Below, in pieces: positions 7,662-32,593 of a stretch of 55,722 bases of DNA (its first letter is position 1; each line of letters opens with the position of its first letter). The DNA is taken from the NCBI GenBank assembly GCA_033763635.1, contig JANRKG010000083.1, positions 1 to 55,722 on the forward strand. The letters run 5' to 3'. Source of the DNA: Leptolyngbyaceae cyanobacterium bins.59. Its GTDB lineage: Bacteria > Cyanobacteriota > Cyanobacteriia > GCF-001939115. The position numbers were made by a program, and so were the translations under genes. The notes under the pieces are model-generated. The model saw nothing but the letters and a program-made list of their open reading frames with translations, was not told the DNA's origin and made no database searches.

Positions 7662-8870
7662 GTGCCATTTTCTTCTTACCAATCCTTCTGGTCCCTTGAC
7701 CCCAGGGTGACATTTTTGAATCATGGAGCCTTTGGAGCCTGTCCTCGCCCTGTGTTAGAAGCCCAGCAACGATGGCGCGATCGGTTAGAAGCCCAACCCC
7801 TCAAGTTCCTGGGGCGCGAGATTGAGGAGTTATTGGATACAGCGCGATCGGACCTGGCGGCGTTTGTGGGGGCGGAGTCCGGGGAATTGGCCTTTATTCC
7901 TAATGCAACGACTGGGGTGAATGCGGTGTTGCGGTCTCTGATGCCGCAGTGGGGAATCGGGGATGAGCTATTAACGACAAACCATGAATACAATGCCTGT
8001 CGCAATGCTCTGAATTATGTGGCTCAAACTTCTGGAGCAACGATCGTTGTTGCAGAAGTGCCTTTTCCCATCACAGATCCCGAACAAATGCTAGAAGCAG
8101 TGTTGGCAAAGGTTTCAGAAAGAACTCGGCTTGTCCTCGTGGATCACATTTCCAGTCAGACGGCTTTGATCTTTCCGATCGCATCACTTACGAAAGCACT
8201 GAGAACACAAGGGATTGAAGTTCTGATCGATGGTGCCCATGCACCGGGAATGATCCCTCTGAACCTGACTGAATTGGGGGCAACCTACTACACAGGGAAT
8301 TGCCACAAATGGCTATGCGCTCCCAAGGGAGCCGCATTTTTGTATGTGCAACGCGATCGTCAGGCACAAATTCGACCCCTGACGATTAGTCACGGGGCTA
8401 ATGATCCAAGGAAGCATCGAAGTCGCTTTCACCTGGAATTTGATTGGATGGGAACGGGGGACCCAAGCGCTTATCTCTGTGTCCCTGAAGCGATTCGATT
8501 TATGGGATCTTTATTGCCGGGGGGCTGGCCTGAGTTAATGGCAACCAATCGAAACCTGGCTCTGGCGGCTCGACAGGTTCTCTGTGAAGGGTTGGCAGTG
8601 CCTCCCCCCAGTCCCGATGAAATGGCCGGGGCGATGGTGAGTATTCCCTTGGCGAACTCTCTGCCAGAGGATTTGTACGATCGTCTGGTTCATGAATTCC
8701 AAATAGAAGTGCCCGTTATTCCCTGGCACCCTCCCCTGCGGCGACTGATTCGGGTTTCTGCCCAGGTGTATAACCTTTTGGAACAGTACACCTATCTAAC
8801 AACGGCTCTGAAACACCTGTCAGTGGGCAATAACTTTACTCCTGAAAAGATAATAAAAAACCTTCAGTGA
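7662..8870 (+). CDS. Class V PLP-dependent aminotransferase (isopenicillin-N-epimerase / cysteine-desulfurase-like)
   Basis: 402 aa with a GTG start. Contains LVDHISSQTA, DGAHAPG, and GNCHKWLCAPKG carrying the PLP-lysine HK motif. Confidence 0.8.
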   Translation: MPFSSYQSFWSLDPRVTFLNHGAFGACPRPVLEAQQRWRDRLEAQPLKFLGREIEELLDTARSDLAAFVGAESGELAFIPNATTGVNAVLRSLMPQWGIGDELLTTNHEYNACRNALNYVAQTSGATIVVAEVPFPITDPEQMLEAVLAKVSERTRLVLVDHISSQTALIFPIASLTKALRTQGIEVLIDGAHAPGMIPLNLTELGATYYTGNCHKWLCAPKGAAFLYVQRDRQAQIRPLTISHGANDPRKHRSRFHLEFDWMGTGDPSAYLCVPEAIRFMGSLLPGGWPELMATNRNLALAARQVLCEGLAVPPPSPDEMAGAMVSIPLANSLPEDLYDRLVHEFQIEVPVIPWHPPLRRLIRVSAQVYNLLEQYTYLTTALKHLSVGNNFTPEKIIKNLQ

Positions 8871-8895
8871 TAGCACTGAAGGTTTGATTTGTTCC
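8859..8895 (+). terminator. Rho-independent terminator of the aminotransferase gene
   Basis: Perfect 11-bp stem aaccttcagtg / cactgaaggtt (8859-8869 / 8874-8884) with loop atag, followed by the T-rich tail tgatttgttcc. The stop codon lies inside the stem. Confidence 0.7.
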
Positions 8896-9180
8896 TTTGA
8901 TTTGATACCAAAAATTTACCATTGTTACTCAAAAGCCTTTGCACTCTGAGTCACATCATTAAACTTGCTTCATAATTGGTGTACGCCTTTTCGATCTGCT
9001 CTCGCAGTTCCCAAACCCTTAGACGATACGGTGAAAGCCCACAAGCGTAGGCTGTAGAATGTCCATACTTCCCCAGGAAGGAAAGAAATTGTTGCATCTC
9101 CCGTTATCGAAAATTTTGTGAAGACGAGTATCGTGGTACGGAACCCTTTCTTTAGAAAATCACTGTGCTGTTTTGGGTAA

Positions 9181-10494
9181 ATGCTTATGCAATGGGTTAA
9201 GACACTAGCAGTAAGAACAGGAAGCTTATGCAGTCTGCTATTACTGGCAACCTATCCCCTTGTAAATCATCGTTCACTCGTAGAACCAGGAAAACTTCTT
9301 GCCCAGACCTCCCTAGCATCCCTTTCGGGTTCTGTCCAAATTGGGTTGGAGCCGTCCGGCACTTCTGCGTTGACCGTTTCTGCTGCCAGTGCTTCGCCAT
9401 CCCCGTTGTTCCAGCAGCCTCCCGTTTTTCCTTCCCCCACCTTCAACAGTGAGCAACTCGATCGCCAGTTGGTCCTCTATTACCAATATTTGGAACTCTC
9501 CGGTCCACCGGATGTGTTGATTGTCGGAAGTTCCCGCGCCCTGTCGGGGATTGATCCCCTCACCCTTCAGCAAACCCTTTGGCAGCGGGGATACTCTGAC
9601 CTGCGAGTGTTTAACTTTAGTATCAACGGGGCAACGGCGCAGGTGATCGATATTCTCCTGCGGCAAATTTTGACCCCCGATCAACTCCCCCGGATGATTA
9701 TCTGGGGAGATGGGGTGCGGGCCTTTAACAGCGGTCGTCCGGATCATACGTATCAGAAAATTGTAGTGTCCCAGGGGCTTCGATCGCTTCTGGCTTTCCG
9801 GTCTCGACCTTCAGGGCAATCCCCAGAAACCTGTGCCATTGCCCCGATCGCCTCCCTGCTCCAGAACCGACGGCCTTTCTGGCTTACATTAACAGCGGCC
9901 CTGCGTCCCCCCGCTGTTCAGAAGCCCTGCCCGGTGCCCGATGCGATCGGGGGACCGATCGATCCCGGAGAAACCATCCTGGACCGCGAAAGGTTAGGAT
10001 TTCAAATTATTACCCAACAATTCAATCCAACTCACTATTTTCGGCAGTTTCCCCGGGTGTCGGGGCGCTATGACGGCGACTACCACAAGTTCAATTTGCG
10101 AGGCTCTCAACATGCGGCATTAGTGCGTGTGACTCAGTTTGCCCGCAACCAGCGGATTCCTCTAGTCTTTGTCAATTTGCCCTTGACCGCAACCTACATG
10201 GACTCGACTCGAATAGCCTATGAGCGGCAGTTCTGGAATTACATGCAACAGTTCGATCGTCGCGACCAACTGATTTTTCGCAACTTGAATCGGCCTAACC
10301 TGGCAAAGAATCAATACTTTATGGACCCCAGCCATATTAATGAACGGGGTGCCCGTGCCGTTGCGCTGGCTCTGGGACAGGATGCGACCCTACCCTGGCC
10401 CCATCCCTGGAGCAGTTTAGCTCCTTTGCCAACCCCCCCCATTGCCATGATCCGTATTTTCTGGCTGGCCCTCGTGCCCCATTTGCATTCCTGA
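9181..10494 (+). CDS. Hypothetical exported protein (possibly DUF1574 / SGNH-DltD-like)
   Basis: 437 aa with an N-terminal hydrophobic anchor, then VLIVGSSRALSGIDP, IIWGDGVRAFN and MDPSHINERGA, which are reminiscent of SGNH/DltD-type motifs. The function call is weak. Confidence 0.55.
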   Translation: MLMQWVKTLAVRTGSLCSLLLLATYPLVNHRSLVEPGKLLAQTSLASLSGSVQIGLEPSGTSALTVSAASASPSPLFQQPPVFPSPTFNSEQLDRQLVLYYQYLELSGPPDVLIVGSSRALSGIDPLTLQQTLWQRGYSDLRVFNFSINGATAQVIDILLRQILTPDQLPRMIIWGDGVRAFNSGRPDHTYQKIVVSQGLRSLLAFRSRPSGQSPETCAIAPIASLLQNRRPFWLTLTAALRPPAVQKPCPVPDAIGGPIDPGETILDRERLGFQIITQQFNPTHYFRQFPRVSGRYDGDYHKFNLRGSQHAALVRVTQFARNQRIPLVFVNLPLTATYMDSTRIAYERQFWNYMQQFDRRDQLIFRNLNRPNLAKNQYFMDPSHINERGARAVALALGQDATLPWPHPWSSLAPLPTPPIAMIRIFWLALVPHLHS

Positions 10495-24155: not shown

Positions 24156-24422
24156 TTACGATCGCTGCACTCGATTCTCAAACTCCTCGCGGGTGGACTC
24201 GACCAGGGCCAGCGCTTGCGGGTAGACCGTCGGCTGTTCTTGTTTCAACCAGGCCAACAACCGAGACATCTGGGCATTTCGCAAATCCAGATCTGCTTGA
24301 AAGATGGTCGTGGTTGCCAGATAGACAGCGTACTGTTCCGGATGGCCCTGAGCAACAAACTGGGCTGTCAAATAGGTCAAAGCTTGTTGCCGCACCGGAT
24401 CGGGAGTCTGATCAGGAATCAT
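24156..24422 (-). CDS. Hypothetical small soluble protein
   Basis: 88 aa, helical and acidic. Tightly packed between the AAA+ gene and the membrane-protein gene on the same strand. Confidence 0.45.
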   Translation of the reverse strand: MIPDQTPDPVRQQALTYLTAQFVAQGHPEQYAVYLATTTIFQADLDLRNAQMSRLLAWLKQEQPTVYPQALALVESTREEFENRVQRS

Positions 24423-24491
24423 AGATCTTAAGAAGAATGGATGGATTAATATTTCTGTATTGAAGAGGGATTGGCTCTGTCCTCTGCCTTC

Positions 24492-26363
24492 CTAAGCTTG
24501 CCGTTGTTGCATTAATGCCTGATACGCCAACTGGAAGTCTTCAGCGGTAATGCGAATCTGAGTAGGGTCGGTTTGCCCCTGCACTCGATAGCGACGAATG
24601 GCTTCCAAGGCTGCCTGATTGCTCAATAAAGCGAGGTCGGCACCGTTCCACCCGTCCGTTTGGGTGGCCCACTCGGTCAAATCGATCTCTTCCAGCGGAC
24701 GGTCTTGATTGTGAACTTGCAGAATTGCCAGTCGGCTTTCCAGATTGGGCAGATCGACCTTTAGTTGCAGGTCTAAGCGTCCGGCACGGAGAAGGGCGGG
24801 GTCCAGAGCAGAAGGACGATTGGTGGCTCCCACCAGGATCACATTCGGGCATCCCTGCAAGCCATCCAGTTCAGTCAGCAGTTGACCAACGACCCGATCG
24901 CTCACGCCCGAATCCCCCTGATGCTGACCGCGCACGGGAGCCAGGGTATCAATTTCATCAATAAAAACAACACAAGGCGCGGCCTGTCTGGCTTTGGTAA
25001 ACAATTCCCGCACTTCCTGTTCCGCTGCCCCAACCCAACGAGTCATCAGTTCAGGGCCATTCACGGCAATGAAGTTGGCCCGCGCCTGGGAGGCAACGGC
25101 TTTTGCCAATAAGGTTTTCCCCGTTCCGGGTGGACCCCACAACAGAATCCCTCTGGGCGCTTTCGCCCCCGTTTGGCGATAGAGTTCTGGATAGAGCAGA
25201 CCCCCTTCAACCGATTCCTGCAACTTCCGCTTGATCTCCTCCAACCCTCCAATTTCATCCCATTGGACGTTGGGAGCTTCGACTTCCACCGATCGCAGCA
25301 CCGAGGGTTTAATTTCCCGTGCCGCCAGGAGTAGATCCTCCTGGCTAATCGTCATATTGTCGGGCAGGGGGGCTTTCAGAGAGGGCACTTGGCGACGCAG
25401 AGCGGTATAGGCTGCTTTTTGGGTCAGGGCTTTTAAGTCGGCTCCCACTAGTCCCACACTCAAATCCGCGATCACCTCCAAATCAATTGAGCTATCCAGG
25501 GGCATGGAGCGGGTTAGAATTTTGAGAATTTCCAATCGCCCTTCACGATCGGGCACCCGGAACTGCACCTCACGATCGAACCGGCCCGGACGACGCAGGG
25601 CGGGATCAAGGTGATCGGGGCGATTGGTGGCTGCCAGCACAATGACCCCTGAGAGTTTAGCAAACCCATCCATCAAACCCAGAAGTTGGGCAACAAGGCG
25701 CTTCTCGACTTCCCCTTCTACTTTGCTGCGATCGGGCGCTAACGTATCAATTTCATCGATAAAAACGAGACAGGGAGCCGATCGCGAAGCTTTTTCAAAA
25801 ATGCTCCGCAACCGGGCTTCTGCTTCTCCGTAGTGTTTGCCCATCACCTCCGGGCCAACGATTGCAATATAGTTCGCGTCTAATTCTTCCGCCAGGGCAC
25901 GGGCGGTTAGGGTTTTCCCGGTGCCAGGGGGGCCAACCAGCAGAACTCCTCGTGTGGGTTCCAGTCCCATTTTCTTTAGCAGGTCTGGACGCTTGAGGGG
26001 AAGTTCCACCAGTTCCCGCAATTCCTGTAAAATGTCTCCCAGTCCACCGACATCGGTTAGAGAAACGCCTCCGGTACTATCCTCTTCGTCTTCAGAGACA
26101 GGAGGGGTGATGATGACGTTCGGATTGGCTGGATTTGATGAATTAGTTGGAGTTTCGGATGGTGCAGGGCTGGGACCGGGAGTTCGGATGCGGCTAGTAC
26201 CAATGCCTCCAGCACCTCCAGGAATATTTCCCTGGCGAGGAATACTACTCAGCGATCGAGAGTTAATCTGAATATCTGCCTTCAGTTCTCCCTTTTCCGC
26301 TTTTTCCTCTAACGTTTTTGCCAGTTCTAATAACTGCTCAAAGCCCTTAAATAAATTATCCAT
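24492..26363 (-). CDS. Cdc48/p97-like tandem AAA+ ATPase lacking a recognisable N-domain
   Basis: D1: GPPGTGKTLTARA and LVFIDEID. D2: GPPGTGKTLLAKA and VVFIDEID. Both carry GRFD/GRLD arginine-finger regions. The N-terminal 110 aa or so is a short helix plus a Pro/Ser/Gly-rich low-complexity linker. Confidence 0.85.
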   Translation of the reverse strand: MDNLFKGFEQLLELAKTLEEKAEKGELKADIQINSRSLSSIPRQGNIPGGAGGIGTSRIRTPGPSPAPSETPTNSSNPANPNVIITPPVSEDEEDSTGGVSLTDVGGLGDILQELRELVELPLKRPDLLKKMGLEPTRGVLLVGPPGTGKTLTARALAEELDANYIAIVGPEVMGKHYGEAEARLRSIFEKASRSAPCLVFIDEIDTLAPDRSKVEGEVEKRLVAQLLGLMDGFAKLSGVIVLAATNRPDHLDPALRRPGRFDREVQFRVPDREGRLEILKILTRSMPLDSSIDLEVIADLSVGLVGADLKALTQKAAYTALRRQVPSLKAPLPDNMTISQEDLLLAAREIKPSVLRSVEVEAPNVQWDEIGGLEEIKRKLQESVEGGLLYPELYRQTGAKAPRGILLWGPPGTGKTLLAKAVASQARANFIAVNGPELMTRWVGAAEQEVRELFTKARQAAPCVVFIDEIDTLAPVRGQHQGDSGVSDRVVGQLLTELDGLQGCPNVILVGATNRPSALDPALLRAGRLDLQLKVDLPNLESRLAILQVHNQDRPLEEIDLTEWATQTDGWNGADLALLSNQAALEAIRRYRVQGQTDPTQIRITAEDFQLAYQALMQQRQA

Positions 26364-27477: not shown

Positions 27478-28149
27478 CTACATAAAGTGATAGGGAGGCA
27501 GCGGGTCATCCAGAACAAATTGCCAACCTGGGCAGGCACTTTGCCAGTCGGTTAAGAAGTTTAGAATAGAAGACTCATCGGTGCGAGGGGCTAGGAGATA
27601 AATGCGAGCAGTGTCCTCCTGAGGTTCCCCAATGATGCCCTCCAGGGAAGACTGTAGAACGGCTCCCTTGAACGCTTCTAACTGGGCTTCCTGTTGTTGC
27701 TGCCACTCGATTTGGGAGGTGTAGCGCTGTTTCTTTGCCAGAAAGTAGGCCCGACCTGGAAGTTCTGTCAGAGGAGCGGTATCTTCTGGAGGAGGAAGGG
27801 GAATGAGCCGTAGCGTGTACTCGGCTTTTCCTTTAAGGTGACGCAGCTTATCGAGATATTCCTGACGGTGACTTTCGAGATGACGAGTCAGGGTTTCTAC
27901 GGAAAAAAATTGGGTTCCGAATCGTAGAGGCAATAAATCGGTTTGGGAGAAGAGGTTTTGAATAACGCGATCGTGGGCCAGCACTGCCTGAATCAAACGC
28001 TCATCACGCTGTTCTAGATCTTCCCAGGGAACTTCTAACTCAACAACGGCAGCCAGGTCGGGCGTTTGGATCATCCGCAGGGGTTCGATGATCCCCATTG
28101 GCAGAACTAACGGATTGTCCGGTTTTGGCAACAGGGCATAGACATACAT
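27478..28149 (-). CDS. GvpL/GvpF-family protein (orphan; no other gas-vesicle genes nearby)
   Basis: MYVYALLP N-terminus, AVLAHDRVIQNLFSQTDLLPLRFGTQF, KGKAEYTLRL and a C-terminal PLPPYHF. These parallel conserved GvpF blocks as I recall them (LYLYGIFP, LLPLRFG, GK.E..., APYTF). Confidence 0.7.
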   Translation of the reverse strand: MYVYALLPKPDNPLVLPMGIIEPLRMIQTPDLAAVVELEVPWEDLEQRDERLIQAVLAHDRVIQNLFSQTDLLPLRFGTQFFSVETLTRHLESHRQEYLDKLRHLKGKAEYTLRLIPLPPPEDTAPLTELPGRAYFLAKKQRYTSQIEWQQQQEAQLEAFKGAVLQSSLEGIIGEPQEDTARIYLLAPRTDESSILNFLTDWQSACPGWQFVLDDPLPPYHFM

Positions 28150-28169
28150 AACAAATCAGGCATCGGCAG

Positions 28170-29705
28170 CTAAGGATAGGTAGAAGCCAGGGGATACAGA
28201 TGAAATCCCAGATGAAGTTGGAGGAATCCAGATTGCCAGTCTTCCTGATCCATCTTGCACTCAATTTGACATCCCCGTCTCAATAAGGGAAGTAGGGAAA
28301 TGGAGCCAAGCATCTGAAGGTCTAACCGTTCAAATAGCACCTCAATCCGTTCCGGTTCTTGACAAAACTCATGGTTGCGAGACTGAACAACCACAGTGGA
28401 ATTGAGCAGGGCTGGAGCCTGATCGAGGAGGTGTCCCGTTGCCAGATCCATCACCCAGATCTGACCATCGATCGTCAAATGAATCATCGCCAGTAGGCGC
28501 AATAATCCCGTTTCCCAATCTTGCTGGGGCTGCAAAACCCGCGCCGGAATCCCACTCATCAATTGGGTTAACTCTGGGGAAACACGGGTTAATTGCCAGA
28601 ACCATTGGGGGAGCCACCCACTTCCTAAACAATCTGTTTTTAAGAGAGGATGGGACTCATTTGCACTACTGGAATGCAAATGGTTGACGAGATGGTGGGC
28701 GATGTGGATGAATTGTTCGACGATCGCTTCTTCCTCTTGATCTAACAGAGCTTCCAGGGGATGGAGGGTTAGAAAACTGATCAACTGAGGGATGAGCAGT
28801 TCTTGAGTCACCTGCTGGAGGAAGGTAGGGTCTGTCAACCGGAGGGGAAACTCGGTAATGCTAGGGGGTTGGGACTCGTGATCAATCTTCCCCGGAAGGG
28901 AGAGGAGCCTCGGTTCTGGCGTGAACTCCAGATGCAGCCTTAACCGAACAACTCCTGCTTGCCAGGGCTGTCCGGGAACCAGCAAATCCGCTTCGGCCCC
29001 TGCCATAAACAGAGCAATATCAGGGGCAACGGCCTGGACCTGGCGGGTCAGGGATTGCAGCAGGTTTTCCCCCCAGATCGGAGCAGGGCAAAGGCTGCCC
29101 TGCTCCGATCGCACCACCTGATCCGTCAGGAACGTTTCGTGGGATAGGGAGTGGGTCACGAGATCGAGAGAACAGTCTGCGATCGGGGTTTTGACTTCGA
29201 GCACGGGAACGAGGCGCAGCATGCCAGACTGCCAGGATTCCCCCGGTTTGCAGACCTGGCCCGGAATCCCACCAACCAGTTGCATGATGTCATAGGAGGT
29301 CCGGGCGAGGCTCCAGAGCAAGCGGGGCGCGAGTTGTTCGATCGAACAGTAGTGTTGCAGAAAATCTTCCTGGGACGTGCCACCGATGGAGTGGAGGGGC
29401 AGGATCGGGACTGGGCTGTTTTGAACTGCGCTCCAAACCTCGTAGGCTTCTTCTAAAACATAGGGCGCGAGGTTTTGGGGGGTTTGTTCCAGGTTCGCGG
29501 GCCAGCCACTTCCGGGTGATCGTAAGTGATTCACCATGTCGATCAGGTGTAGCATTGCAGTGGCGATCGGCTCCGCGACGGTGAGGGTGGGAGCTTGTTC
29601 TGGGAAGGTTGGTTCAGCAAGCTTCAGGACGGTTTTGCTGATGGTCGCAGGATTGCCGGGTTCAGCAGAGGGGTGGGGGGTGTGGGTGGGAGGAGGTTCT
29701 AACAT
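28170..29705 (-). CDS. Hypothetical 511-aa protein: tandem degenerate MazG-like domains, each extended by a repeated beta-rich module
   Basis: aa 51-94 (LHLIDMVNHLRSPGSGWPANLEQTPQNLAPYVLEEAYEVWSAV) resembles the MazG N-terminal helices, echoed at aa 333-366. Modules at aa 141-170/379-408 (GIPxxVxxPxxxWxxGxLRL) and 236-262/477-505 (PxQxWQxG..L.L) show an internal duplication. Confidence 0.6.
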   Translation of the reverse strand: MLEPPPTHTPHPSAEPGNPATISKTVLKLAEPTFPEQAPTLTVAEPIATAMLHLIDMVNHLRSPGSGWPANLEQTPQNLAPYVLEEAYEVWSAVQNSPVPILPLHSIGGTSQEDFLQHYCSIEQLAPRLLWSLARTSYDIMQLVGGIPGQVCKPGESWQSGMLRLVPVLEVKTPIADCSLDLVTHSLSHETFLTDQVVRSEQGSLCPAPIWGENLLQSLTRQVQAVAPDIALFMAGAEADLLVPGQPWQAGVVRLRLHLEFTPEPRLLSLPGKIDHESQPPSITEFPLRLTDPTFLQQVTQELLIPQLISFLTLHPLEALLDQEEEAIVEQFIHIAHHLVNHLHSSSANESHPLLKTDCLGSGWLPQWFWQLTRVSPELTQLMSGIPARVLQPQQDWETGLLRLLAMIHLTIDGQIWVMDLATGHLLDQAPALLNSTVVVQSRNHEFCQEPERIEVLFERLDLQMLGSISLLPLLRRGCQIECKMDQEDWQSGFLQLHLGFHLYPLASTYP

Positions 29706-29990: not shown

Positions 29991-31916
29991 TTATGCGTCT
30001 GGAGGGGGTTGGGATGGGGTCACGATCGCCCCGTTCTCACTCGCAGTTTGATTTTGCAACAATTGTTTAACCTGACTGACGACTCCAGATAATTTTCCTT
30101 CGTCTAGCAAGGTGTTGATCAGGGAAAGGCCACTAGTGGACAGCAGCAGCTTATTGATATCTGAAACACCGCTGCCGTTGCTGCCACTTACGCCAGGGAA
30201 AGAATAGATGCGGGCATCCCCCAAAACTCCCGGTTGGGGGGCGAGGGCCTGAAGCACTTCAGGGAGACGTTCTGCCAGATCGGGCCACATGGTTGTCAGT
30301 AAGTTAGCAGTCAGGTTGGCGTTGCTGATCACGTTCTTCGCTTCCATCAATGCCCGTAATCCTTCGGCCTCCGCCAGGGACTTATCTCGGTTCGCCTCGG
30401 CCAGGGTCCGGATGGCTACGGCTTCCAGTTCAGCGGCTTGTTGCGCGATCTCCGCCTGTCGTCGGCGACGGAAAACATCAATTTCCACCACGTTTTGTTC
30501 CAGAACCCGTTTTTCCTGGGCGGTTTGTTCCGCTGCGATGACCGCCAATTTTTGGGAACGTTCCGCCTTTTCTACTTCGGTGGCAGTGATGACCCCGGAC
30601 TCTGCCTTGGCTTGCTGGGCTTCTGCCAGGAAACTTTCGCGGCGTTTGGTGGCGATCGCGATATTCAAATCTTCCTGGGCCAGTTTTGCCAGTCGCTCCG
30701 ATTCGGTCAGTTGCACCTGGGCCTGGAACTTGCTCGACTCTACGGCTTGCTGACGGGTGACTTCTGCGATCTGGGCTTCCTGTTGCTGAAGCGCCTGGGT
30801 GACTTTCAGTTGTTTGCTCCGTTCCTCCAGGGCGATGTCGGCTTCGATCTGGCTCTGTTGTACTGCCAGTCGCTTGCGAATTTCCTCTTCCTCGACGGCC
30901 TGATCTTGCAAAATTTTGGTGCGGCGAGTGGTCGCGGCCTCCCGGTCCTTGGATTCCTGGATTTCCCGTTCCTGTTGCGCCCGGAGAGCTTCCACCTGGA
31001 GTTCCTGTTCTAACCGGGCGGCTTCCTGTTCCTGGGCAATTTGCAGGGATCGCTTCCGGGCATCCAGTTCTTTTTGCTCGATTTCCACCTGGGTTTCCAG
31101 TTCCACTTCCCGTTTCTGCTGGATCGATCGCTGGATCGTTTCCGTCCGTAACCGAACCCCCTGCGCGTCAAAGAAATTGTTCGTGTCGTAGGTGTCGCTT
31201 TCCTGAACTTCCGAGATCGCGATGTTGTTGAGGGTCAAACCGACTTTGCTGAGATCCTGTTGCATCAACTCCAGCACTTTTTGGGCGAACCCCAACTTAT
31301 CGGAATCGATTTCTGCCAGATCTTTATTTTTGGCTGCGGCCCGAATGGCATCATCGGCCCGTTTTTCCAGTGCATTTTTAATGTCTTCGGGCGTAATCCG
31401 ATTATTTTGGGAGAGCCGAGCCGCAGCGGTCAGGACATCTTCTTCCGTTGCACTAATACAGACATATAATGTCACGCGCATATCGGCCCGCAGGTAATCT
31501 TTTGTGCGAACAGCCAGCTTTCCCGTCCGTTCCACGTCGATCGACAGTTCCCGTAGGGGCACCCGTGTCAGTTCATGAAAACCGGGAAGCACCACACAGC
31601 CCCCATTCAGGATAACCATTTTTCGTTTAACAAAAATTCCCCCGGTTCTCACAAAGGCTTCGTTATTGGGGGTAATGACGTAGACCCGTGTATAGGCCCA
31701 GACACTAAAGAGCAGGAGAAAAATCAGCCCTGCAACTAATCCTGGCAGAATGAGTAACCCACTTCCGCCAAGTTGTCCTATCAATGCCTGGGAGGGAGGG
31801 GCTGTTTGGGCGAGCAGGGGTTGCGGTTCCCGAAAGTCGGAGTCGGTTTGCTGAAGAGAGACTTCTTCCGGAGAAGCGATCGGTAAGGATTGAAGCAACG
31901 TGAACCAGAACAGCAT
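29991..31916 (-). CDS. Flotillin/YqiK-type SPFH (band 7) protein with long coiled coil
   Basis: N-terminal TM, an SPFH block (YVITPNNEAFVRTGG...LRADMRVTLYV), then about 300 aa of E/Q/A/R-rich coiled coil. I place the start at the ATG overlapping the NfeD stop (TAATG at 31914-31918) rather than the 691-aa ORF start at 32066. Confidence 0.85.
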   Translation of the reverse strand: MLFWFTLLQSLPIASPEEVSLQQTDSDFREPQPLLAQTAPPSQALIGQLGGSGLLILPGLVAGLIFLLLFSVWAYTRVYVITPNNEAFVRTGGIFVKRKMVILNGGCVVLPGFHELTRVPLRELSIDVERTGKLAVRTKDYLRADMRVTLYVCISATEEDVLTAAARLSQNNRITPEDIKNALEKRADDAIRAAAKNKDLAEIDSDKLGFAQKVLELMQQDLSKVGLTLNNIAISEVQESDTYDTNNFFDAQGVRLRTETIQRSIQQKREVELETQVEIEQKELDARKRSLQIAQEQEAARLEQELQVEALRAQQEREIQESKDREAATTRRTKILQDQAVEEEEIRKRLAVQQSQIEADIALEERSKQLKVTQALQQQEAQIAEVTRQQAVESSKFQAQVQLTESERLAKLAQEDLNIAIATKRRESFLAEAQQAKAESGVITATEVEKAERSQKLAVIAAEQTAQEKRVLEQNVVEIDVFRRRRQAEIAQQAAELEAVAIRTLAEANRDKSLAEAEGLRALMEAKNVISNANLTANLLTTMWPDLAERLPEVLQALAPQPGVLGDARIYSFPGVSGSNGSGVSDINKLLLSTSGLSLINTLLDEGKLSGVVSQVKQLLQNQTASENGAIVTPSQPPPDA

Positions 31917-32593
31917 TATGAATCCCCTTTCTGTGACGCTTGTGAGGTGGATGAATTCAACCAGTTTTGTTCGTCCAAGCTGTTGCGAACGATGACGAAG
32001 TAGACCTGCTCCCGACGATCGATCACTAACACCTTGTCTCCTAAGACGGGCCGCACCGTTGCCCATTCTGGAAAGACTGCATTGATGGAAACCAGATTTC
32101 GGGCGGCATCAATGGCATTGACCTGCCCAATGCGTCCATCGCGATCGTCTGGGATCACAGCGGAACTGACCGTTCCGTTACACCCAATCAGGCGATCGGC
32201 ACTGACATCTTCGCCAAAGGTTGCCAGGGCTTTTCCCATTGGGCGGGCCAGTAATCCTCCGCCTGCCACTGCCAGTCCCAGCGACACCCCCAATACGGCT
32301 CCACTCAGCAGATTTCCCGGCATCTGACCGAAAATTCCGGCGATCGTGACGTTCAGCATCCAGCCAAAAAGTCCCCAGAGGCTCAAGTCTGTGGCGAGTA
32401 GCAAGATCAACGGTGCTTTCCCAAAGCCGATCCAGCCTAATGCCTGACCCATCTCAAATCCACCATCCCCCTCTGCATCCAGATCCCCATCTCCGTCCCC
32501 ATCATCCCCGCCGGAGACAATAACGAGGAGAAACAGACCGATCCCCATTCCCAGGAACAGCCAATAGGGTAAATTGGCAGGATGAAAGAGCAT
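31916..32593 (-). CDS. NfeD/YqiJ-like membrane protein (flotillin partner)
   Basis: N-terminal TM, an acidic DGDGDGDLDAEGDGG loop, further TMs, and a C-terminal OB-like soluble domain (GTVSSAVIPDDRDGRIGQV...VLVIDRRE). Translationally coupled to the flotillin gene. Confidence 0.75.
   Translation of the reverse strand: MLFHPANLPYWLFLGMGIGLFLLVIVSGGDDGDGDGDLDAEGDGGFEMGQALGWIGFGKAPLILLLATDLSLWGLFGWMLNVTIAGIFGQMPGNLLSGAVLGVSLGLAVAGGGLLARPMGKALATFGEDVSADRLIGCNGTVSSAVIPDDRDGRIGQVNAIDAARNLVSINAVFPEWATVRPVLGDKVLVIDRREQVYFVIVRNSLDEQNWLNSSTSQASQKGDS

Follow-up and report, generated by a model that had tools for sequence, protein, structure and literature searches.

Proteins of the GvpL/GvpF family are soluble assembly factors and interaction hubs. 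To our knowledge they have been understood solely as factors for the assembly of gas vesicles, and GvpW ranks among those about which least is understood. MazG enzymes, as established for that of E. coli, modulate the response to nutritional stress. The KGK domain is specific for cyanobacteria, and a role in protein-protein interactions has been suggested for it (PMC5827413). Among the peripheral, non-structural ATPases of gas-vesicle (gvp) clusters there is an ArsA homologue, which travels with gvpW in the gvp clusters of Anabaena and Nostoc (Castillo and Saier 2010, PMC2963123). The locus described here lies in a stretch of 55,722 nt (55.7 kb, below called the window) from Leptolyngbyaceae cyanobacterium bins.59 (GCA_033763635.1, contig JANRKG010000083.1, forward strand 1-55,722). 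A gene of the gas-vesicle family had been predicted there in close coupling with a MazG-like gene, and the two reading frames, of 223 and 511 aa, are both present on the minus strand with a gap of 20 nt between them (Table 1). The 511-aa protein is here named A1.

Table 1. Features in the window; positions are counted from its first nucleotide.
Feature	Position	Strand	Basis
223-aa protein, GvpL/GvpF family, assigned to the GvpW type	27478..28149	minus	ORF list; Pfam E 4.2e-37
511-aa protein, A1	28170..29705	minus	ORF list; tandem repeat, MazG-derived helices and KGK-like modules
Spacer between A1 stop and GvpW-like start, 20 nt	28150..28169	minus	TAG stop to ATG start
A1 aa 45-96, two helices homologous to the MazG N-terminus (LRSPGSGWP...PYVLEEAYEV)	29418..29573	minus	EExxE present
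A1 repeat unit 1, aa 41-270	28896..29585	minus	Duplication; half-unit AlphaFold model
A1 repeat unit 2, aa 286-511	28173..28850	minus	Duplication and family alignment
A1 aa 215-265, Pfam KGK (PF08872) match above the gathering score	28911..29063	minus	Pfam search
BON-domain protein, 157 aa	26551..27024	minus	Pfam BON 26.8 bits, just below the cut-off of 27
Cdc48-like double AAA+ ATPase, 623 aa	24492..26363	minus	Pfam/NCBIfam and orthologue identity
88-aa conserved protein, motif IFQ[AT]DLDLRNAQ	24156..24422	minus	Homologue alignment

The 223-aa protein and its gas-vesicle context

Membership of the 223-aa protein in the GvpL/GvpF family, as originally predicted, is borne out by Pfam PF06386 (E 4.2e-37, 128.9 bits, cut-off 23.6), with a match that spans residues 1-223 of the protein and positions 2-244 of the 245 in the profile. 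It is however not a generic GvpF/L. The identity to GvpW of Anabaena PCC 7120 (alr2245, P0109) is 43% at 100% coverage, and the range for cyanobacterial GvpW proteins (Anabaena alr2245 and Microcystis aeruginosa) is 40-47% over the full length. The alignment of GvpW-like proteins has 32 invariant columns, and the motifs LLPLRFGT, YFLAKK and a C-terminal LPPYHF are invariant in it. A neighbour-joining tree, made without support values, groups the protein with in-cluster GvpW and away from GvpF. Against the equivalog model for cyanobacterial GvpF (NF052351) it scores 19.8 bits, below the curated cut-off of 350 that Anabaena GvpF, the positive control, passes with 388.7, and against that for GvpL (NF045778) it scores 26.5 bits, below the cut-off of 200; the genuine GvpW from the Anabaena gvp cluster does no better on either model. 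The GvpF/GvpL structures 4QSG and 6L5D give marginal matches to the sequence (E ~0.4). Judged from its sequence the protein is thus of the GvpW subtype, and the earlier statement that the window holds no gvpW is wrong, because this gene itself is one of that type.

The gene had also been called an orphan. A tblastn search of the 55.7 kb with Anabaena GvpA, C, N, J, K, G and V as well as ArsA gave nothing credible at E <= 1, and the sole match of Anabaena GvpF was the 223-aa gene, a weak one (E 0.008). Neither are there any gvp structural genes within 10 kb of the class B loci. The gene is therefore alone as far as structural genes are concerned, but two genes associated with gvp clusters follow downstream, one for a Cdc48-like AAA+ ATPase after 1.1 kb and one for an 88-aa protein after 3.0 kb. 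Over its full length the AAA+ protein is 71-73% identical to its orthologues in the gvp clusters of Anabaena 7120 and Nostoc 106C, and both genes flank gvp clusters in Nostocales, the AAA+ gene beside gvpW and the 88-aa gene beside gvpA. The 88-aa protein, with 103 homologues of which most are 55-78% identical, is a constant partner of the AAA+ gene; the two genes adjoin in the loci L091 and L092, and in L093 the 88-aa gene comes after an unannotated truncated gene. In L091 they are linked to a GvpW-like gene without gvpA. The pair of AAA+ and 88-aa genes was not found described in Castillo and Saier 2010 (PMC2963123). In the majority of the loci of classes B and C the AAA, 88-aa and ArsA genes are absent within 10 kb, so the link to the AAA gene is weaker than the link to A1. 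BON homologues (E ~1e-23) are found near GvpW-like genes in the loci L021 and L027, and this is a recurring, not a constant, neighbour.

The architecture of A1

The MazG-like helices that had been read into the 511-aa frame are real, though short. NCBIfam PRK09562 matches A1 at aa 52-97 (E 1.8e-8), the profile of the A1 family matches residues 6-53 of E. coli MazG 3CRC (E 6e-11), and canonical MazG genes are 50-60% identical to A1 over the aa 45-96 stretch. Of the Pfam profiles proposed for checking the two proteins, GvpL_GvpF is thus well above its cut-off, but MazG (PF03819) reaches only 15.5 bits on A1 against a cut-off of 22, covers just positions 1-23 of the 74 in the profile, and matches 4 of 13 A1 homologues weakly. 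Nor did a structure search recover the MazG fold: AlphaFold models of full A1 (pLDDT 77.8) and of a half-unit (pLDDT 83.1, pTM 0.71) had no significant Foldseek match in the PDB (best E 0.24 and 0.11, respectively), and no MazG entries were listed. By the profile and sequence matches A1 is nevertheless descended from a MazG NTP pyrophosphohydrolase.

The duplication that had been predicted is real. The segments aa 41-285 and aa 286-511 match each other in BLASTP with E 2e-17, and when the family alignment is cut into its two halves, hhalign pairs them with a probability of 100% and E 5.4e-45. The added beta modules are supported too, and within each half there is a weaker sub-repeat, a hairpin module W-Q-x-G-x-L-R-L. 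Pfam KGK (PF08872) matches A1 with 27.3 bits (cut-off 25.6; profile positions 43-97 of 119) as well as 11 of 13 homologues, at best with E 1.1e-10. An A1 unit consists of MazG-derived helices and two KGK-like helix-helix-beta-hairpin modules, with four modules per protein. Neither GvpV nor the 88-aa protein is related to these modules (hhalign probability <1% for both).

Among 154 members of the A1 family, 89-96% have the residues of the first acidic motif, EExx[E/D] (E85, E86, E89; [E/D]85 in 94%, E86 in 96% and [E/D]89 in 89%), and for the triad and Y82 the range is about 90-96%. The second acidic metal-binding motif (E-x-x-D, helix 3) is not conserved, and the window protein has IEQLAPRLLW in that region. 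An acidic residue stands at position 124 in 46% of the members and the positions adjacent to LLW are non-acidic, with an exact register that is uncertain as the MazG alignment stops short of it. The degeneration that had been read from EQLAP, at the second motif, is supported with that uncertainty. In repeat 2 the MazG-type acidic motif has been lost and the beta modules are retained, with W370, G400, R403 and D420 conserved.

A1 is on these grounds probably a pseudo-enzyme, although the strong retention of EExx[E/D] gives room for some residual catalysis. An A1 that on its own is an active, divergent NTP/alarmone pyrophosphohydrolase, with the GvpW-like protein merely sharing its operon, we regard as quite unlikely. 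The strong homology to the MazG N-terminus, the retained triad and Y82, and a homologue labelled ‘NTP pyrophosphatase’ by one source are what such an enzyme would predict, but there is no conserved second metal-binding motif, the acidic motif is gone from repeat 2, Pfam MazG stays below its cut-off and Foldseek did not recover the fold. A metagenome scan keyed on the MazG motif of three A1 sequences gave 80 control loci, 79 with canonical MazG and one with a truncated A1-like ORF (L131), and none of the 80 has a GvpW-like gene next to it. The canonical MazG genes found in this way also bear out the MazG ancestry of A1. A1 is always beside a GvpW-like gene and canonical MazG never is, which argues for a joint function.

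Linkage of A1 and the GvpW-like gene

A word-based protein search gave 13 homologues and the impression of a tiny A1 family, which was overturned by an exhaustive HMM search (E <= 1e-30). At 50% identity this search gave at least 221 clusters, and almost all of the proteins are of full length. The GvpW-like gene is carried by 173 species genomes. At all informative A1 loci a GvpW-like gene is at most 2.2 kb away, and there are 22 distinct loci with both genes in total. Five A1 loci had been picked up without reference to GvpW; the GvpW-like gene is directly downstream in four of them and 2.1 kb off in the fifth. Among the same-strand loci listed, 26 when duplicates are counted, 15 have a spacing between stop and start of -1 (an overlap), 3 or 5 nt; in Nodosilinea the gap is 180-416 nt, so the tight coupling is not universal. 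No terminator-like site was found in the 20-nt spacer of the window, a spacer which suggests co-transcription and possibly translational coupling. A1 is split into two ORFs in one MAG (L059), and in Scytolyngbya (L063) the order is a GvpV-like gene, A1 and the GvpW-like gene.

The prediction of a conserved, tightly coupled two-gene unit is supported in several cyanobacterial lineages. Synteny is one-sided, since a GvpW-like gene accompanies A1 at each informative locus but just 17 of 71 informative GvpW-like loci are paired with A1. Where A1 is lacking, the GvpW-like gene is part of a gvp cluster or follows hpf, which encodes a ribosome hibernation factor and is directly upstream on the same strand in 15 such loci. 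The gene of ~225 aa upstream of GvpW-like in A1-less loci was considered as a single A1 unit, but it is hpf (hhalign probability 0.2%; Pfam Ribosomal_S30AE in L091). The wider neighbourhood was rejected as a part of the module, as it is not conserved across lineages (flotillin/NfeD in the window, a kinase and phycobilisome genes in Laspinema, and FHA, Clp and ABC-F elsewhere). Neither A1 nor the GvpW-like protein matches the PADLOC models for anti-phage defence. The arrangement had been noted as one not known from any described system, and we found no description of it in the searchable literature, as far as which the pair is undescribed.

Both genes are under purifying selection, with dN/dS of 0.16-0.32 for A1 and 0.08-0.22 for GvpW-like in three clades. 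It is thus very improbable that the pair is a decaying relic, left without current function after the loss of a gvp cluster. A relic could account for the patchy phyletic pattern, for GvpW-like genes occurring with and without gvp clusters, and for the split A1 in L059, but the ORFs are intact, the 32 invariant columns, 173 species and 221 A1 clusters speak against it, and the selection analysis (0.08-0.32 over both genes and three clades) largely refutes it.

Both genes are carried by Nodosilinea, Laspinema, Stenomitos, Leptolyngbya, Scytolyngbya and Allocoleopsis, genera that are described as lacking aerotopes. This bears on the other reading tied to gas vesicles, that the GvpW-like gene, if not the whole pair, is a displaced accessory serving a gvp cluster elsewhere in the genome. 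The clade shared with in-cluster GvpW, the downstream AAA+ and 88-aa genes that are gvp-cluster neighbours in Nostocales, and the GvpV-like gene ahead of the pair in Scytolyngbya all agree with it. Still, gvpW is inside the cluster in all 24 gvp-cluster loci and A1 is in none of them, the A1-bearing genera are described as having no aerotopes, and the 55.7-kb window has no gvp structural gene. We therefore consider a displaced accessory unlikely.

Proposed role and comparison with known systems

The pair recurs in many cyanobacteria without gvp structural genes nearby, and it therefore probably has a job unrelated to flotation. The explanation that we favour, at slightly less than even confidence, is that A1 and GvpW-like form a conserved two-gene operon working independently of gas vesicles, whose products, a probable pseudo-enzyme and an adaptor, would act together. 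The two proteins would form a stoichiometric complex, in which A1 would be a non-catalytic scaffold, possibly nucleotide-binding, and the GvpW-like protein the binding or adaptor subunit. In the window a plausible cooperation would be that of the complex with two proteins encoded 1-3 kb downstream, the Cdc48-like AAA+ unfoldase and the 88-aa protein that is its partner; the same genes accompany gvpW in gas-vesicle clusters.

The job could also belong to a stress or dormancy programme, where A1, with its MazG ancestry, would sense nucleotides or (p)ppGpp and control the GvpW-type adaptor. The GvpW-like genes directly behind hpf on the same strand in 15 A1-less loci point in this direction, as does the established role of E. 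coli MazG in the nutritional stress response, but the synteny with hpf may just mirror the shared ancestry of one clade, and we hold the programme to be rather improbable. A wider speculation, to which we give a similarly low chance, is that GvpW-type proteins are substrate-binding adaptors of an ancient cyanobacterial remodelling set (Cdc48-like AAA+, 88-aa protein and ArsA-like ATPase) that was recruited by gvp clusters, and which in the lack of gas vesicles is paired with A1, a putative MazG-derived nucleotide or alarmone sensor, and directed at starvation or dark dormancy. The hpf-gvpW-like arrangement is a further hint at such a link to dormancy.

At the loci examined, selection appears to maintain a GvpW-type gene in many cyanobacteria although its surroundings are free of gvp genes. 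In A1 it apparently has a dedicated, translationally coupled partner, whose architecture is novel. If this holds, the GvpF/L family has a second role, independent of gas vesicles. To define the role of the pair could clarify what GvpW, AAA+ and ArsA do in gas-vesicle biogenesis, with a bearing on the engineering of acoustic reporter genes. The unnamed cyanobacterial proteins of at least 221 clusters would also gain a function, as would the enigmatic KGK domain, and there would be a further example of an enzyme, here MazG, that was turned into a scaffold.

Compared with GvpW of the gvp clusters (alr2245 and Microcystis aeruginosa), the 223-aa protein has the same length class (220-235 aa), motifs, Pfam family and clade, but its gene stands outside any gvp cluster within 55.7 kb and is preceded by A1, which is absent from gvp-cluster loci. 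With GvpF/GvpL (4QSG, 6L5D), which act in nucleation and as interaction hubs, it shares PF06386 over the full length, and their protein-binding role in assembly is a model for what it may do; it differs in failing both NCBIfam equivalogs and in its marginal matches to the structures. The association of ArsA with gvp (PMC2963123) has a counterpart in the window in another such ATPase, the Cdc48-like AAA+, whereas the ArsA homologue is absent there. The tandem-domain MazG of E. coli (3CRA/3CRC) and A1 have a two-fold repeat architecture in common, and the first two helices with the signature LR-x-P-x-x-G-x-P...PY-x-x-EE-x-x-E are homologous; A1 differs by having no second acidic motif, by ~130 extra residues of KGK-like beta modules per unit, by its score below the Pfam cut-off and by the missing structural match. 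The KGK-domain proteins (PF08872) are small and encoded beside dynamin-like proteins. One module of A1 passes the KGK gathering score, but A1 is at least 500 aa long with four modules fused to MazG-derived helices, and its partner is a GvpW-like protein instead of a dynamin-like one.

The gene pair and its protein families

The two adjacent open reading frames of the original prediction were recovered as described, and the 20-nt spacer between them holds no terminator-like site.

Features of the gene pair and its downstream neighbours in the window
Feature	Position	Strand	Remarks
A1, 511 aa	28170-29705	minus	ORF
GvpW-like protein, 223 aa	27478-28149	minus	ORF; Pfam GvpL_GvpF
BON-domain protein, 157 aa	26551-27024	minus	between GvpW-like and AAA+ genes
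Cdc48-like double AAA+ ATPase	24492-26363	minus	two genes downstream of GvpW-like gene
88-aa protein	24156-24422	minus	ORF after AAA+ gene; motif IFQ[AT]DLDLRNAQ

The 223-aa protein matches the Pfam GvpL_GvpF profile from end to end (E 4.2e-37, 128.9 bits, cut-off 23.6), which confirms the family first proposed for it. A strict GvpF or GvpL identity is ruled out by the NCBIfam equivalogs, where it scores 19.8 bits (cut-off 350) and 26.5 bits (cut-off 200), respectively; Anabaena GvpF reaches 388.7 bits against the GvpF equivalog, and the bona fide Anabaena GvpW is equally poor against the two (23 and 31 bits). The 223-aa protein has some 200 cyanobacterial relatives, which are 220-235 aa long and 40-50% identical over the full length. 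One of them is encoded by alr2245 of Anabaena PCC 7120, which closes the gvp cluster (gvpA, A, C, N, J, K, F, G, a small gvpV on the opposite strand, then alr2245) and was designated gvpW by Cai et al. 2020 (PMC7204071); the distant kinship of GvpW to GvpL/F is also already published (PMC2963123). A neighbour-joining tree, without support values, groups the GvpW-like sequences into one clade that a long branch separates from GvpF; 32 columns of their alignment are invariant, among them those of LLPLRFGT, YFLAKK and a C-terminal LPPYHF. Because of the kinship to Anabaena GvpW, the tree placement, the like equivalog scores and the invariant motifs, the gene is by sequence of the GvpW type within the GvpF/L family, and the earlier claim that gvpW is missing from the window was the single factual slip. 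The gene, which databases already auto-annotate as "GvpL/GvpF family", adds a member to a known family.

A1 is a tandem repeat, as had been claimed: its halves match each other in BLASTP (E 2e-17), and the halves of the family alignment do so in hhalign (probability 100%, E 5.4e-45). Within each half there is a weaker sub-repeat of a helix-helix-hairpin module (W-Q-x-G-x-L-R-L). Residues ~40-100 are 50-60% identical to genuine MazG proteins, so that descent from MazG can be regarded as secure on sequence similarity. The proposed relationship holds for the N-terminal helices, with aa 52-97 matching NCBIfam PRK09562 (E 1.8e-8) and a profile of 13 A1 homologues matching residues 6-53 of E. coli MazG (3CRC, E 6e-11), the only match in the PDB sequence set. 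The likeness is however restricted to these first helices, the Pfam MazG score is below the cut-off (15.5 against 22 bits), and membership of the MazG enzyme family is not secure. A structural check for the MazG fold was negative, since Foldseek searches of the PDB with models of the whole protein and of repeat unit 1 found no fold match (best E 0.24 and 0.11, TM about 0.1). These AlphaFold models had a mean pLDDT of 77.8 and pTM of 0.67 (whole A1, 13 sequences) and 83.1 and 0.71 (unit 1 alone). A unit is predicted to consist of two long MazG-like helices, a variable disordered loop, two short helices, a beta-hairpin sheet and then a second helix-helix-hairpin module. This last module corresponds to the part that matches Pfam KGK (aa 215-265, 27.3 bits, just above the gathering score of 25.6), as do 11 of the 13 homologues. 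KGK is a cyanobacteria-specific domain of unknown function, found in a small protein encoded beside dynamin-like proteins (PMC5827413).

Among 154 family members, Y82, [E/D]85, E86 and [E/D]89, the MazG motif PY-x-x-EE-x-x-E, are retained in 89-96%. No such conservation is seen where the second acidic motif would lie, in agreement with its predicted loss, and repeat 2 is without the acidic motif. Invariance is highest in the added modules (W131, G146, G161, R164, D181, W248, W370, G400, D420). It is quite unlikely that A1 is an independent pyrophosphohydrolase with a putative activity of its own; A1 would more probably be a scaffold of MazG descent in which half of the catalytic site is gone, and putative nucleotide binding may persist through the retained EExx[E/D] helix. 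A1 represents an unnamed protein family, and not a rare one, because an exhaustive HMM search (E <= 1e-30) gave 221 representatives at 50% identity, nearly all full length (about 445-770 aa), against only 13 homologues by a word-indexed protein search.

Linkage of A1 to the GvpW-like gene

Five loci from other genomes were ascertained by A1 similarity alone, and in four of them (L002, L003, L094, L098) the GvpW-like gene lies immediately downstream of A1, while in the fifth (L096) a local rearrangement has placed it 2.1 kb off and on the other strand. A further locus, L001, is uninformative, as its sequence ends 210 nt past A1. The synteny expected among related genomes is thus found. The distance from A1 stop to GvpW-like start is -1 nt at L002, L038, L094 (with its duplicate L095) and L098, 3-5 nt at nine loci, 20-27 nt in the window and L003, 80-105 nt at three loci and 180-416 nt in Nodosilinea. 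A control set of 80 loci retrieved by the MazG motif had no GvpW-like gene nearby (0/80); almost all are canonical MazG, with a median hit ORF of about 285 aa covering at most ~100 A1-profile positions, and one, L131, is a truncated A1-like ORF. The adjacency of A1 to a GvpW-like gene is obligatory and tightly spaced, save for the 2.1 kb at L096. Both genes evolve under purifying selection in three clades, with a dN/dS of 0.16-0.32 (A1) and 0.08-0.22 (GvpW-like gene), which contradicts the very improbable explanation that the pair is a decaying relic.

Some loci show peculiarities. The order at L094 3266-8007 is TP_methylase(-), lgt(-), A1(+), GvpW-like(+), and at L096/L097 3188-7611 the GvpW-like gene lies beyond TP_methylase. 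At L059 8325-9988, from a MAG, A1 is split into overlapping ORFs (8325-9413 and 9377-9988) by a frameshift, pseudogenization or an assembly error. Assembly GCA_014695575.1 contains both L091, with an hpf-linked GvpW-like gene, and L001, with A1 on another contig, and may have two GvpW-like paralogues or an unpaired A1. Just upstream of A1 in the window (29991-32593, minus strand) are a flotillin (SPFH/Band 7 + Flot, 691 aa) and an NfeD/YqiJ-like membrane protein (225 aa), whose ORFs overlap by ~150 nt; this neighbourhood is not kept at other A1 loci.

GvpW-like genes turned up in 173 species, apparently all cyanobacteria, when one genome was scanned for each GTDB species. The closest match was only 50% identical, and the source organism is therefore without a close representative in the scan. 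Six-frame ORFs of the 80 best loci were searched with the A1 profile and the Anabaena Gvp proteins. Of the loci whose sequence extends 2.5 kb or more upstream, 22 have the GvpW-like gene within a gvp cluster, 17 have it immediately preceded by A1 and 32 have it with neither. A1 was found at none of 24 gvp-cluster loci. The A1 type spans several clades (Nodosilinea; Laspinema and Oscillatoria; Stenomitos, Leptolyngbya, Scytolyngbya and Allocoleopsis). Since A1 loci carry a GvpW-like gene and GvpW-like loci often are without A1, the dependence is one-way, of A1 on the GvpW-like gene.

At 15 of the 32 loci with neither, hpf, encoding a ribosome hibernation factor, directly precedes the GvpW-like gene on the same strand, a conserved context alternative to A1. 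It hints at a role in sensing stress or dormancy, which we nevertheless consider improbable. The hpf loci, 15 from the genome scan plus L091, are L012, L019, L021, L023, L025, L030, L031, L036, L044, L049, L065, L073, L074, L082, L084 and L091; hpf is of the long type, and a conserved gene of ~240 aa is divergent upstream of it at 14 of them, with a lipB-like gene there at L091. A variant gvp cluster at L032, L035, L080 and L081, with the order gvpG(-), gvpN, J, K, F, AAA+, gvpW, gvpA, differs from that of Anabaena, and in the neighbour-joining tree the GvpW proteins of these clusters are the closest to that of the window.

Gas-vesicle-associated genes in the neighbourhood

Anabaena GvpA, C, N, J, K, G, V and ArsA gave no credible tblastn match in the 55.7 kb, and the only match of GvpF was a weak one to the 223-aa gene itself, so the gvp structural genes are missing as predicted. 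The gene is nevertheless not a complete orphan, as the AAA+ and 88-aa genes downstream are associated with gvp clusters elsewhere. Over the full length, the AAA+ protein shares 71-73% identity with one encoded in gvp clusters. In the clusters of Nostocales the gene for the latter comes after gvpW and an ArsA homologue; Trichodesmium-type and Nostoc 106C-type clusters have it right before gvpW and, if that flank is present, right behind gvpF. The association of ArsA with gvp clusters has been published (PMC2963123). The 88-aa family is well conserved (103 matches, most at 55-78% identity), and members adjoin gvpA at the other cluster end in eight Nostocales and Floridaenema loci. That the GvpW-like gene is a displaced accessory serving a gvp cluster elsewhere in the genome seems unlikely. 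The linkage of the AAA+ and 88-aa genes to it is looser than that of A1, because these and the ArsA-like genes are missing within 10 kb at most loci with A1 or with neither context.

The AAA+ and 88-aa genes are adjacent in the window, L091 and L092 and bracket the gvp cluster in Nostocales (window 24156-26363, L005, L018, L029, L039, L091, L092); we found no description of this pair in the literature. Leptolyngbya FACHB-8 (L091) has lipB, hpf, the GvpW-like gene, two small genes, ArsA-like, AAA+ and 88-aa, without a gvp structural gene, and Leptothermofonsia (L092) has the AAA+ and 88-aa genes alone. In Egbenema and Kaiparowitsia, GvpW-like genes have homologues of the BON-domain protein (E ~1e-23) within 1-3 kb (L021 13392-13775, L027 8490-8903). 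Scytolyngbya sp. HA4215-MV1 (L063 6883-10672) is the sole non-cluster locus with GvpV; the gene (E 4e-41 against the GvpV profile) is immediately upstream of A1 and the GvpW-like gene, among housekeeping genes (lysS, pepA, chpX, ndhD/F).

A possible role of the pair

GvpF/L-family proteins are soluble binders, with GvpF binding GvpA and GvpL acting as a hub in haloarchaeal and cyanobacterial gas-vesicle systems, and by analogy the GvpW-like protein would be a binding or adaptor subunit, with A1 as its dedicated partner. We tentatively propose that the A1 scaffold and the GvpW-like adaptor form a complex working outside gas-vesicle formation, perhaps jointly with the nearby AAA+ unfoldase in the case of the window. 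The data beneath this proposal are the family memberships, the adjacency of the two genes, their tight spacing, the purifying selection and the lack of gvp structural genes nearby. No account of the pair was found in the searchable literature, in line with the claim that the arrangement is undescribed. With its strong synteny and unusual architecture, it appears to be a case in which a factor of the GvpF/L family has been put to new use with a novel partner.
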